NCBI RefSeq assembly: GCF_988243305.1
Contig: NZ_OZ547136.1
DNA length: 64,000 nt
Reading direction: 5' to 3' (one strand)
Shown: one piece after another, positions 4,407 to 17,773 of the stretch
How the letters are laid out: every line of letters begins with the position of its first letter
Position numbering within the stretch: position 1 is the first letter of the stretch
Position numbers and translations under genes: made by a program
The notes under the pieces: model-generated
What the model saw: only the letters and a program-made list of their open reading frames with translations
What the model was told of the DNA's origin: nothing
Databases searched by the model: none

Positions 4407-5635
4407 AGTAACCTCACTATACACAGATATAAAAGCACTGCAATTCTGGCTATTAATAGCAAAAATAGCAGTCAAATCAATATGAGGTAAAAATTTTTGT
4501 TGATTTAATGGTTAAATAATAACCACAGTGTGTTTTGCTGCTGAAGAAAGACAAAATGAATCTGTGTGTCCCCTCCTTCCCTTCAGAGCACATCCACTAT
4601 TCAAATTTTACACAACCACGTACGAACAAAAAGCATCATCCCGGGTATTGCAGATACCGGTTTCCTGCCGGGATGAATCATAAACAGAACACCGGGAATA
4701 ACGCCTTCAGGAATCCCCCCCTCCTGAAGAAGAATAAAATAAAGAAGACTACAGTTCCTGCACTGAATGCTGAGTACAATATTCTATGGACAGGATGACA
4801 TATTTATAAATAACAAAAACCATTTAATACTGATACATCAATAAAATACTTCCTCCCTGCTGACGCAGATAAAATGCACCATTTTTTCTTCAAATACCTC
4901 TGTATAATCGCCAGCCAATGATGAGAATGGATTAAAATAACACTTCTTCGACAAACACAAAAACAGCCTTCATTTTACATCATCATCCAGTTTCAGTTAA
5001 CCCCGGACGAGCGACAGTGTTTCAGTACAGGAATTAAAAGCCAGCTTTTGCTCAGTAAAAACACACTCAACTAATAATATCTCAGCAGATATTATCCTGA
5101 CCAGGACACCTCACATTACTGAATTCTCTTCCGACAGTATCACTGCACAAATAAAAAAGAACGGGATAAATATTCAGACCGGAAGAATGGTGTCACAAAA
5201 GCATTTAATCATTACGCATGACCAGGAAGGGAAACACTTAACCACATGGTATCAACAGATATCATTACGTGTGCACTCTTATAAAAAACACACAGAAGAA
5301 GTAAGATAATTATAAATGTAAATTTAATATCTCCCACTGACATCTCCCCCACAATACACTGAAAAATACTCACAGCAGTAAACACAGACACACCTGATAA
5401 TCATGCAGCCGATAAATATTTTCCCCTTTACGGAGAAATCAGCCTGCTGTTTAACAATAACGGCGTATTTTCATGGAAGGAGATCACCCAGTAACGGATA
5501 AGTCCTGATCTCCTTCATGTTAATACGCAACAATCCCATCGATTAAAAACAATTTCAGACAGATATTATCTCCGTGAATCCCCCGCCACCTTTCCGGTGC
5601 GCGGGGTTTTGTCTTTTTTCACCGGGAATACATGT

Positions 5636-6508
5636 ATGAATCCGTCTGATGCCATTGAGGCAATTGAAAAACCGCTCTCCTCCCTGCCTTACTCGCTTTC
5701 CCGTCACATCCTGGAACATCTGCGCAAACTCACCCGTCACGAACCCGTGATTGGCATTATGGGTAAAAGCGGGGCCGGTAAATCCTCACTCTGTAATGCA
5801 CTGTTTCAGGGGGAGGTCACCCCGGTCAGTGATGTTCACGCCGGCACCCGGGAAGTACGGCGCTTCCGTCTGAGTGGCCACGGTCACAGCATGGTTATCA
5901 CTGACCTGCCCGGGGTGGGCGAGAGCCGGGACAGGGATGCAGAGTATGAGGCCCTGTACCGTGACATTCTGCCTGAACTTGACCTGGTACTGTGGCTGAT
6001 TAAAGCCGATGACCGTGCCCTGTCTGTGGATGAGTATTTCTGGCGACACATCCTGCACCGGGGACATCAGCGGGTACTGTTTGTGGTGACGCAGGCCGAC
6101 AAAACGGAGCCCTGCCATGAATGGGATATGGCCGGTATTCAGCCTTCTCCTGCACAGGCACAGAATATTCGCGAAAAAACGGAGGCGGTATTCCGTCTGT
6201 TCCGGCCCGTACATCCGGTTGTGGCCGTATCGGCCCGCACCGGCTGGGAACTGGATACGCTGGTCAGTGCGCTCATGACAGCGCTTCCCGACCATGCCGC
6301 CAGTCCCCTGATGACCCGACTGCAGGACGAGCTGCGCACGGAATCTGTCCGCTCTCAGGCCCGTGAACAGTTTACCGGTGCGGTGGACCGGATATTTGAC
6401 ACAGCGGAGAGCGTCTGTGTTGCCTCTGTTGTCCGTACGGCCCTGCGCGCTGTTCGTGACACGGTGGTCTCTGTTGCCCGTGCGGTATGGAACTGGATTT
6501 TCTTCTGA
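5636..6508 (+). CDS. yeeP: YeeP/YfjP/YkfA-family GTPase (50S ribosome-binding GTPase family), apparently intact
   Basis: P-loop GIMGKSGAGKSS, DLPG and TQADK GTPase motifs; start at MNPSDAIEAIEKP (internal ATG of track ORF 5597..6508). Confidence 0.8.
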   Translation: MNPSDAIEAIEKPLSSLPYSLSRHILEHLRKLTRHEPVIGIMGKSGAGKSSLCNALFQGEVTPVSDVHAGTREVRRFRLSGHGHSMVITDLPGVGESRDRDAEYEALYRDILPELDLVLWLIKADDRALSVDEYFWRHILHRGHQRVLFVVTQADKTEPCHEWDMAGIQPSPAQAQNIREKTEAVFRLFRPVHPVVAVSARTGWELDTLVSALMTALPDHAASPLMTRLQDELRTESVRSQAREQFTGAVDRIFDTAESVCVASVVRTALRAVRDTVVSVARAVWNWIFF

Positions 6509-6607
6509 ACCTGTCGTGACTGATGCCCTCCCTGACTCTGAGTCTGCTCACAAAAGCACTGTTTTCGTTACTGTCTCTCTTGTCCGTGCAATAGCTCAAT
6601 AATAGAA

Positions 6608-6652
6608 TAAAACGATCGATATCTATTTTATCGATCGTTTATATCGATCGAT
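6608..6652. promoter_or_regulatory. agn43 phase-variation switch: three closely spaced GATC Dam sites (OxyR operator region)
   Basis: Sequence aaaacGATCgatatctattttatcGATCgtttatatcGATCgataagc lies about 190 bp upstream of the flu ATG; three GATC sites in this spacing are the documented Dam/OxyR switch of agn43. Confidence 0.7.
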
Positions 6653-6835
6653 AAGCTAATAATAACCTTTGTCAGTAACATGCACAGATACGTACAGAAA
6701 GACATTCAGGGAACAACAGAACCACAATTCAGAAACTCCCACAGCCGGACCTCCGGCACTGTAACCCTTTACCTGCCGGTATCCACGTTTGTGGGTACCG
6801 GCTTTTTTATTCACCCTCAATCTAAGGAAAAGCTG

Positions 6836-16310: not shown

Positions 16311-16685
16311 ATGAAAACATTACCCGATACACACGTACGGGAGGCATCGAGCTGCCCGTCTCCCGTCACCATCTGGCAGACTCTGCTCTCCCGACTACTG
16401 GGCCAGCATTACGGCCTTACACTGAATGACACACCGTTCGCCGATGAACGTGTGATTGAGCAGCATATTGAGGCAGGCATTTCACTGTGTGATGCGGTGA
16501 ACTTTCTCGTGGAAAAATACGCGCTGGTGCGTACCGACCAGCCGGGATTCAGCGCCTGTACCCGCTCTCAGTTAATAAACAGTATTGATATCCTCCGGGC
16601 ACGCCGGGCAACCGGCCTGATGACCCGCGACAATTACAGAACGGTAAATAACATTACCCTGGGTAAGTATCCGGAGGCGAAATGA
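16311..16685 (+). CDS. cbtA: CbtA (YeeV) type IV toxin (inhibits FtsZ/MreB polymerisation)
   Basis: 124-aa product [57 protein letters not shown]... matches CbtA. Confidence 0.85.
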
Positions 16686-16876
16686 TGACACTGGAAGCCG
16701 ACAGCGTTAACGTACAGGCGCTGGATATGGGGCACATTGTCGTTGACATTGATGGTGTTAATATCACTGAACTGATTAATAAGGCCGCTGAAAACGGTTA
16801 TTCACTCCGCGTGGTGGATGACCGTGACTCTACCGAAACACCGGCAACTTATGCCAGCCCTCACCAGTTGCTGTAA
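16682..16876 (+). CDS. yeeW: YeeW-family small protein
   Basis: 64-aa ORF overlapping the cbtA stop by 4 bp; position and sequence as for yeeW. Confidence 0.7.
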
Positions 16877-17479
16877 GACAATGCAGTGATACAGGGTATA
16901 GTGCCATTAACCACAGAAACAGCACTGTTGTCCTGTATTAAGCAGGCAAGAGAAGATGTCCTTACCCTGCGCCATCTGCAGCTTCTGCACCAGAACCGGT
17001 GAATCTCACTCAACAGGCTTCATTTCTCCTGACGCCAGCCTGAATACAGCTGGCGTTTTCATTTATAAACAGAAAGGAAAACCGATAATAATGGAATGGA
17101 CGCCCCGACCATGAAGCAACGGTAGGATATTACTGATAAACCTTCCAGTGGAGGTGCGTTATGGCCGTTTTAACGATTAGCATTGACCTGACAAAAAATG
17201 AATTCCAAATCCACGGTCTGGGTAGGAACAGAAAAATCTAAGCTCAGAAAACGGATTAAAGTAAGCGTCAACGGAGCACCGTATTGACGCTTATTTATTG
17301 GTGAGAACTACGTTCCATGGCAGGAGTTCGTCAACACGGTTGGAGGGCCATTCCGGCAGTATGCTCAGAATATGGCGCAGATACGCTTCCGGATCGATAC
17401 CGTTCAGACGGCAGGTGCCTGCTTTTCTGGCAACAAGCAGGAATCTCAGCGCTGAAGCAGGAATTAGAGGTAAAAACGC

Positions 17480-17673
17480 CCTACCGGGCCATGAATCACC
17501 CGGTCATTGGAGTAGTAACCAAAGCAGATTTAGCCAGCATGGAACAAATATCTTTGGTGAAAAGTTGGTTACGGGAAGCTGGAGCGCACAACGTGTTAGT
17601 AACCAGTGCAGTTAATAACAATGGAGTTACAGAACTTTTTGCCTTGCTGCATACAGAAGAAGGCTGTTGTTAA
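17480..17673 (+). pseudogene. PduV/EutP-family GTPase C-terminal remnant (yoeF-like)
   Basis: Translation ...HPVIGVVTKADLASMEQISLVKSWLREAGAHNVLVTSAVNNNGVTELFALL resembles the C-terminus of PduV/EutP; the N-terminal P-loop region is absent. Confidence 0.45.
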
Positions 17674-17773
17674 TTTCGATTGGTTCTCGGATGAGAATGA
17701 TGACGGTGATACACAGATAAGAATCAATGAGCAATGAGGGTTGCCGGGCAACCCTCATTGAATAAAACGGGAA

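Follow-up and report, generated by a model that had tools for sequence, protein, structure and literature searches.

A putative, less decayed orthologue of the cryptic prophage CP4-44 at the cobU-tmaR site of Escherichia coli, and its relation to the K-12 copy

We analysed an island carrying flu (agn43), yeeR, irmA, yeeS and cbeA-cbtA in a stretch of 64,000 nucleotides of contig NZ_OZ547136.1 (RefSeq assembly GCF_988243305.1), hereafter called the window. The region is very probably the orthologue of CP4-44, the cryptic prophage of E. coli K-12, and has decayed less than the K-12 copy. We take it for a remnant, presumably immobile, of an island module that recurs in E. coli and measures about 17-21 kb; it is situated between cobU and tmaR, and the K-12 arrangement was derived from this layout by two deletions and the insertion of IS5 and IS2. 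An earlier reading of the letters alone (hereafter the sequence-only reading) had described positions 5597-17700 as an intact CP4-44-like island. The genes claimed within this interval are all present (open reading frames (ORFs), Pfam, NCBIfam, PDB), with yoeF at its end being a PduV remnant and not part of the island. "Intact" was, however, too strong a word: the right end is truncated as in K-12, the window contains neither an integrase nor a tRNA gene, and it also lacks the YagK-like gene. Note that the fuller CP4-44 layout and the K-12 deletion are already known; the deletion of yeeR and irmA was published by Moriel 2016 (PMC4807369) and Bernabeu 2019 (PMC6480617), and hundreds of sequenced strains share the layout. 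Added here are breakpoints resolved to the base, the finding that ardB and the 5' end of yeeS are lost as well, the second deletion of 15.3 kb, the right-end truncation common to both copies, and the population counts. The significance is small and amounts to bookkeeping: the K-12 form of CP4-44 arose from a widespread island layout by two deletions, and therefore the "YeeR" and "YeeS" of K-12 are truncated and unfit as reference forms.

Positions 1-20000 of the window were used as the megablast query against 5,426 complete E. coli genomes, with at least 80% of the query in one place as the cut-off. The window-type layout was found in 714 of them, with identity of up to 99.3%. In the best-matching genomes, the region sits between cobT-cobS-cobU and tmaR-yeeA-sbmC-dacD-sbcB (continuing toward his), and in K-12 MG1655 this cobU / tmaR-yeeA site is held by CP4-44. 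Thus, the window is chromosomal E. coli DNA, with the orthologue of CP4-44 in it. The right flank lies inside the window (tmaR, yeeA::IS621, sbmC and dacD; 99.6% identity to K-12 with blastn), and the left flank, cobU, was read in the relatives H1, H5 and H71. Per genome, the median number of places matched by the 20-kb query was 6, some of them being copies of IS621. This element (IS110 family; 18784-20059, within yeeA), with a transposase of 326 amino acids encoded at 18888-19868 on the minus strand, is in neither K-12 nor B1-56, and occupies the same insertion place in many relatives.

Positions 1-26000 were then aligned with the corresponding region of K-12 MG1655 (L002) with blastn, which gave four collinear blocks: window 5956-11596 with L002 12660-18300 (99.3% identity), 14954-15690 with 18303-19039 (97.3%), 15818-18783 with 19078-22042 (97.6%), and 20060-26000 with 22040-27980 (99.6%). 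Thus, K-12 is without window 11597-14953 (3,357 bp), a segment comprising the 3' part of yeeR, irmA, the DUF905 and DUF932 genes, the antirestriction gene and 10 codons from the start of yeeS. The interruption at 18784-20059, between the last two blocks, comes from the IS621 in yeeA of the window strain and not from a K-12 deletion. An alignment around flu had been set beforehand as a check, and the K-12 gene set does differ by this segment. The long yeeR of the sequence-only reading (838 amino acids, against a K-12 product cut after residue 507) and its four genes between yeeR and yeeS that K-12 lacks (IrmA, DUF905, DUF932 and an ArdB-type antirestriction protein; blastn and Pfam) were both borne out. 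The K-12 internal junction reads ...GGTAAAGTA-GA-GGAGAGATGACG... (also written as GTA, GA and GGAGAGATG in succession), with a filler of 2 nt. CCCGG is found at both parental ends, but simple microhomology was rejected since the junction reads GTA-GA-GGAGAG. K-12 YeeR keeps residues 1-507, followed by three junction-derived codons, and K-12 yeeS starts at an internal Met of the intact gene (window 14960), its 10 N-terminal codons being gone. The deletion thus extends 30 nt into yeeS; the sequence-only reading had correctly let it start inside yeeR, but had placed its end upstream of yeeS.

In K-12 CP4-44, homology to the window begins at 5956 and positions 1-5955 are unmatched, so that K-12 retains yeeP from about codon 121 on. 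The gene described as uninterrupted in comparison with K-12 is indeed intact in the window, but in K-12 it is truncated at its 5' end, not interrupted. Strain UTAK-6 (L004) has the window-type layout together with the full left flank, and K-12 is perfectly collinear with it from cobS to just past the fragment of yoeA (TonB receptor), save for the IS5 and IS2 of K-12. At L004 11389 the collinearity breaks off, to resume at 26656 in the middle of yeeP, which defines a second K-12 deletion of about 15.3 kb. K-12 CP4-44 hence equals the window/UTAK-6 layout minus two deletions plus two insertions (IS5 and IS2). The left junction was found in 359 of the 5,426 complete genomes; the internal junction gave 385 matches, of which 26 had a different junction, leaving likewise 359 genomes. 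The agreement of the two totals suggests a single lineage with both deletions, mostly laboratory derivatives of K-12. Compared as wholes, the two copies share the site, the IsrC RNA and a truncated yeeW; yeeP'-flu-yeeR' is 99.3% identical between them, and the right end with its flank 100%. To the K-12 gene set (yeeP'-isrC-flu-yeeR'-yeeS-yeeT-cbeA-cbtA-yeeW) the window adds about 6 kb on the left (alpA, the yfjI-like gene and the 5' part of yeeP), the 3' part of yeeR, irmA, the DUF905 and DUF932 genes and ardB; it differs further in its cbeA-cbtA allele and in the IS621 in yeeA, and is without the IS5 and IS2 of K-12 within its reach.

In a five-way alignment evaluated per 250 bp, the gene order was constant and the alleles were patchy in the 3' part. 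Within 14251-16500, allele-sized patches with 83-93% identity alternate between relatives in ardB, yeeS, cbeA and cbtA: window 14251-14500 is 83% identical to H1 and 99% to H5 and 95JB1, and window 15751-16500 (cbeA-cbtA) is 97-100% identical to H1 and about 85-94% to H5, 95JB1 and K-12. The cbeA-cbtA allele is unlike that of K-12 (92% amino acid identity, nucleotide identity down to 85%). The patches look like the outcome of gene conversion among paralogous island copies within each genome. The same reversal of identity between 14251-14500 and 15751-16500 could be taken to mean that this strain has combined two different islands, in which case the completeness would be an artefact of mosaicism. 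We regard such a chimera as improbable: the gene order is identical in H1, H5, H71 and the paralogue in a pheV island, the patches are allele-sized (250-750 bp) and fit gene conversion among several paralogous places (the median of 6 matches per genome), and no structural join is visible. The possibility of a chimera, which the sequence-only reading had itself named as a refutation, thus does not hold as a gross joining of two islands, but yeeS-cbtA is an allelic mosaic.

The right end of the module consists of a YeeW stub (DUF5983_N by Pfam, 64 amino acids; 16682-16876, plus strand) and a DUF957 remnant, together 16682-17089 on the plus strand, and homology to fuller copies stops at 17089. 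In the pheV-island copy (L007), cbtA is followed by genes for a full DUF5983 protein of 162 amino acids, a DUF957 protein of 65 amino acids and a DUF4942 protein of 189 amino acids. Nothing in the window corresponds to L007 39592-40057; DUF4942 is missing altogether, and so are most of DUF5983 and a portion of DUF957, which contradicts the claim that the island is intact. The pheV-island copy also has an extra 550 bp between yeeT and cbeA. Window and K-12 are 100% identical over 16751-18750, and therefore the right-end truncation is common to both. Outside the module lie yoeD, a transposase fragment (about 17290-17418, minus strand; K-12 and RefSeq annotation), and yoeF, a C-terminal PduV/EutP remnant (17491-17673, plus strand; Pfam PduV-EutP, 7.9e-13). 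At the other side of the island, a remnant annotated as cobalamin biosynthesis was seen next to cobU in relatives (L001, L004 and L008). The pduV remnant on the right and the cbi-type remnant beside cobU suggest that a cbi-pdu cluster may once have occupied this site and has since been lost.

The sequence-only reading had stated that the integrase and the attachment site are not in the window, and this was confirmed: tblastn with IntA and IntF gave no match in the 64 kb, ARAGORN predicted no tRNA gene there, and a repeat search for attachment-like (att-like) direct repeats gave only short matches at chance level. They are probably not just outside the window either, because neither an integrase nor a tRNA gene lies between cobU and the module in H1, H5 and H71. 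Between cobU and the module, these genomes (98.9, 99.3 and 99.9% identical) carry only the cobalamin-gene remnant, debris of insertion sequences, a few metabolic genes and two zinc-ribbon genes, and the nearest tRNA gene is that of a tRNA-Asn (asnV in K-12), beyond the core genes ldtA-cobTSU. The AlpA regulator and the DUF3987 helicase-like gene, together with the name CP4-44, which implies a P4-like prophage, might point to a still-functional integrative element or P4-like satellite prophage with its integrase just beyond the window. This is very unlikely in view of the missing integrase and tRNA gene, both in the 64 kb and in the three relatives with their insertion-sequence debris, the truncated right end and the failure to find att-like repeats. 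Furthermore, there were no phage structural genes or P4 capsid-size genes among the proteins scanned. A PHROG scan of ten island proteins for P4 hallmark genes returned only the anti-restriction protein, a "DNA helicase" (DUF3987) and unknowns, and the larger ORFs were all assigned to families other than the P4 hallmarks (sid, psu, delta, epsilon and alpha primase).

The island can be divided into functional units. The left part may represent a regulatory and replication-like unit (a stub of an Hha paralogue, AlpA, the DUF3987/YfjI helicase-like protein and the YeeP GTPase), and the series DUF905-DUF932-ArdB-RadC/JAB YeeS-DUF987 may be a module of the establishment or anti-defence type from a transferable ancestor, with CbtA/CbeA as a putative addiction module that would favour retention of the island. 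The establishment or anti-defence role is proposed because DUF932 occurs in a plasmid leading region with DUF905 alongside, and because the antirestriction protein is of the ArdB/KlcA type, which is plasmid-borne (KlcA, PDB 2KMG). Homologues of the DUF932 protein with 61-63% identity were found in at least 5000 plasmids, of which 4415 are conjugative; in one IncF plasmid, the homologue lies in the leading region between psiB/hok and traM, next to oriT/traM, beside genes annotated as DUF905 and ssb. In the island, ssb, psiB, hok, a relaxase and oriT were not found, and RadC, DUF987 and CbtA/CbeA were not in the stretch of the IncF plasmid examined. A search of the literature for a leading-region link of DUF932, antirestriction and RadC found nothing useful.

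Several points weigh against the proposal of an immobile CP4-44 remnant with a plasmid-like 3' module. The window begins inside the island, and for the left end the absence of an integrase is deduced from three relatives with 98.9-99.9% identity. The analogy to the leading region consists of one measured homologue (DUF932) and one family match at the level of annotation (DUF905), and ssb, psiB and oriT are among the genes and sites missing from the island. Finally, the yeeS-cbtA part is a mosaic, like H1 in cbeA-cbtA and like H5/95JB1 at 14251-14500, and thus a single "ancestral" sequence is not readable from the window copy.

For the stretch 11597-14953, comparison of the sequences supports the long layout as ancestral and the K-12 form as derived, as the sequence-only reading had proposed. 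In a search of 5.8 billion proteins, YeeR homologues of 820-847 amino acids were found in gamma- and beta-proteobacteria, namely in Enterobacteriaceae, Serratia, Pseudomonas, Shewanella, Methylomonas, Cupriavidus and others, and their alignment shows a strongly conserved block at about residues 409-550, inside which K-12 YeeR is cut at residue 507. The same gene order is kept in the paralogous copy that lies in a pathogenicity island of the pheV type, together with sat, iuc and kps. The full-length homologues, the cut in the conserved block and the gene order of the pheV island argue for the long layout as ancestral, and K-12 YeeS without its first 10 codons and the presence of the layout at this locus in 714 genomes likewise argue for K-12 as derived. 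The opposite polarity, with the K-12 arrangement ancestral and the 3.36-kb segment gained by insertion or by recombination with another island, could draw on the differing yeeS-cbtA alleles (85-93% nucleotide identity in places), which indicate that recombination with paralogous copies does occur, but it is effectively refuted by K-12 YeeR stopping within an invariant domain with three junction-derived codons, by the 10 missing N-terminal codons of K-12 YeeS, by the full-length homologues of distant proteobacteria, by the long layout in the 714 genomes and in paralogous islands, and by the restriction of the K-12 junctions to about 359 genomes.

The full-length yeeR (10076-12592, plus strand) encodes a membrane protein of 838 amino acids without a Pfam-A match in the version used; a newer family beyond that version, YeeR_C (PF27347), covers YeeR. 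Its architecture comprises N-terminal transmembrane helices, tandem winged-helix domains, a zinc ribbon, the conserved alpha/beta domain and a C-terminal glycine-rich helical region, with an invariant cysteine cluster in the homologue alignment (C333, C336, C356, C360 and C367); the mean predicted local distance difference test score (pLDDT) of the AlphaFold model was 76.7. No match was obtained with PHROG, and searches of PDB by sequence and profile gave only a glycine-rich low-complexity match and nothing informative for the 409-550 domain. PADLOC gave a weak match to the candidate defence protein PDC-M09B (E = 9e-06). In Pseudomonas nunensis the gene for the homologue stands alone, with a RES/Xre toxin-antitoxin pair nearby, a context that gave no functional clue.

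The left end after GGTAAAGTA (window 11596; L002 18300; L009 9204; L012 near 3275; also in L013) is common to four different junctions in yeeR. One leads into yeeS (K-12); a second, from SRR28545945, is a 1-nt variant of the K-12 junction and yields an in-frame YeeR-YeeS fusion; a third leads into ardB and was found in 26 genomes at another chromosomal site near fec/nanC; and a fourth leads into the DUF932 gene in one short-read Logan contig of SRR28582832 and was not found in any complete genome. In several E. coli strains, other in-frame internal deletions of yeeR were observed (proteins P0003, P0004, P0006 and P0021 aligned to 10076-12592), and the variety of these deletions suggests recurrent inactivation of the gene. 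The shared breakpoint could reflect a deletion mechanism with one fixed end, or a full-length YeeR that is costly and repeatedly lost; its source could be a hotspot, a stepwise history or, in the single-contig cases, an artefact. That yeeR is a deletion hotspot or under selection for inactivation is offered only tentatively, and we think it rather doubtful. The shared breakpoint and the role of full-length YeeR are small questions for work on Ag43/IrmA islands.

Upstream of yeeR lies flu/agn43 (6836-9955, plus strand), encoding the Ag43 autotransporter adhesin of 1039 amino acids (NCBIfam auto_Ag43 NF033177, 1865 bits). The gene is full-length, as the sequence-only reading stated, but this is not a difference from K-12, the Flu of which has the same length and 99.1% amino acid identity. 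It is preceded by the IsrC RNA (Rfam family IS102) and the flu regulatory region (6612-6815, plus strand; RF00124, 253 bits), in which the three GATC sites of the Dam/OxyR switch (6614, 6633 and 6646) match K-12 and a palindrome (I4) was found. irmA (12668-13123, plus strand) encodes the secreted interleukin-receptor mimic, with 151 amino acids and a signal peptide (Pfam IrmA PF18673, 2.5e-37; PDB 5EK5, E = 2.8e-83). agn43, yeeR and irmA thus follow one another on a single strand (6836-13123) behind the region with three GATC sites; a strong, terminator-like 12-bp stem with a T-run was found at 13148-13176, 3' of irmA, and none between flu, yeeR and irmA. By experiment in the uropathogenic E. 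coli (UPEC) strains EC958 and CFT073, agn43-yeeR-irmA forms one OxyR-repressed, phase-variable operon (PMC4807369), and the transcription of the operon, its control by OxyR and the secretion of IrmA are taken here from the literature. The window agrees with this model in its retained GATC sites and in the position of the stem. The three genes would therein form a phase-variable operon, under Dam/OxyR control through the GATC sites in the IsrC region and ending at the stem after irmA.

From DUF905 to CbtA, all genes of the 3' module are on the plus strand. The DUF905 protein (13202-13435; 77 amino acids; Pfam DUF905, 3e-16) is 45% identical to K-12 YkfF, and the DUF932 protein (13535-14353; 272 amino acids; Pfam DUF932, 4.5e-52) is 74-75% identical to YfjQ and YafZ. 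In UTAK-6, a group II intron with a reverse transcriptase/maturase gene (L004 34235-37462) splits the DUF932 gene; the window copy is uninterrupted. They are followed by genes for the ArdB/KlcA-type antirestriction protein (14435-14914; 159 amino acids; Pfam Antirestrict, 3e-37; PDB 2WJ9, E = 1e-101, and KlcA 2KMG) and for YeeS, a RadC-like JAB protein (14930-15406; 158 amino acids; NCBIfam and Pfam), of which the paralogue YfjY (LfgB) has been described as a protease (PMC10846083). yeeT (DUF987; 15469-15690; Pfam DUF987, 8e-39), the antitoxin gene cbeA (15853-16221; 122 amino acids; Pfam PF06154, 2e-52) and the toxin gene cbtA (16311-16685; 124 amino acids; Pfam PF06755, 1.6e-62) complete the series; cbeA and cbtA are adjacent and both intact, a predicted type IV toxin-antitoxin pair (Pfam and ORFs). 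The initial NCBIfam scan had given no names for YeeR, IrmA, DUF905, DUF932, ArdB, YeeT and CbeA.

The left part starts with a small Cys-rich protein of 65 amino acids with a C-terminal hydrophobic stretch (185-382, plus strand; ORF with a weak PHROG match); the gene is also in H5, H71 and the pheV-island copy (L007), carries the annotation "hypothetical" in relatives, and is one of the genes of the conserved left part. An Hha/YmoA-family paralogue follows at 797-946 on the minus strand (49 amino acids; identified by translation and by the RefSeq name of the equivalent gene in relatives). It is N-terminally truncated, the Hha-like C-terminus being preceded by a stop codon in place of the N-terminal part (797-1012, minus strand); hha paralogues have been linked with the flu-yeeR-irmA cluster (PMC6480617). 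The alpA and DUF3987 genes, which the sequence-only reading had placed upstream, were confirmed with Pfam: an AlpA-family helix-turn-helix regulator (1705-1911, plus strand; Phage_AlpA, 3.4e-08; 24% identical to K-12 AlpA) and a helicase-like YfjI-family protein (2922-4406, minus strand; DUF3987, 4e-95; PHROG 2373 "DNA helicase", 1e-81; 52% identical to K-12 YfjI). Its YagK-like gene had to be given up. The ORF in question (1998-2600, plus strand; a hypothetical protein of 200 amino acids) had zero matches in Pfam, PHROG or PADLOC and no similarity to K-12 YagK or YfjJ by tblastn, and these two proteins and the Gp2 protein of H1 had no match in the whole 64-kb window. The true YagK homologue of the relatives is an inovirus Gp2 family gene (40% identical to YagK), which stops 15 bp short of the window start. 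Between the convergent 200-amino-acid ORF and the yfjI-like gene, a perfect inverted repeat of 17 nt with a loop of 6 nt (2823-2862) was seen, probably a bidirectional terminator. The intact YeeP GTPase (5636-6508, plus strand; 290 amino acids; Pfam MMR_HSR1) is 50% identical to YfjP and 49% to YkfA.

Among known islands, the same gene order and proteins are found in UPEC CFT073 and EC958, in enteroaggregative E. coli 042 and in module 5 of AGI-3 of avian pathogenic E. coli (flu-yeeR-aec69-aec70-aec71, "region 2"), with an Hha paralogue linked (PMC4807369, PMC6480617). Those copies lie in tRNA-associated pathogenicity islands (serX, pheV and selC), whereas the copy in the window lies at cobU-tmaR and has a truncated right end. 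The sequence-only reading had seen the full backbone of CP4-57/CP4-6-type elements. This stands for AlpA, DUF3987, the GTPase, DUF932, antirestriction, RadC, DUF987 and the CbtA-type pair (Pfam matches, and 49-82% amino acid identity to CP4-57 and CP4-6 proteins), and not for the YagK/YfjJ-like gene. Identity to the window proteins is 52% for YfjI, 49-50% for the GTPase, 74-75% for DUF932, 67-70% for the antirestriction protein, 71-82% for RadC, 62-66% for DUF987 and 61-66% for antitoxin and toxin. CP4-57 and CP4-6 differ from the region in the window in having retained an integrase, beside ssrA or close to thrW, and in being without flu-yeeR-irmA; in them the GTPase and DUF932 genes are adjacent with the cargo after DUF932, whereas the cargo of the window lies between the GTPase and DUF905/DUF932.

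Beyond the island, the window contains an O-antigen gene cluster (40000-54161, with JUMPstart at 54123-54161 on the minus strand), followed by the colanic acid genes. The cluster is of a rare type: coverage of window 40000-64000 reached 80% or more in only 7 of the 5,426 complete genomes, of which one is labelled O125ac. Further Rfam matches were the small RNA STnc240 (27230-27304), the his leader (30042-30165) and two naRNA4 (repetitive extragenic palindromic (REP)-type) elements (60718-60885).

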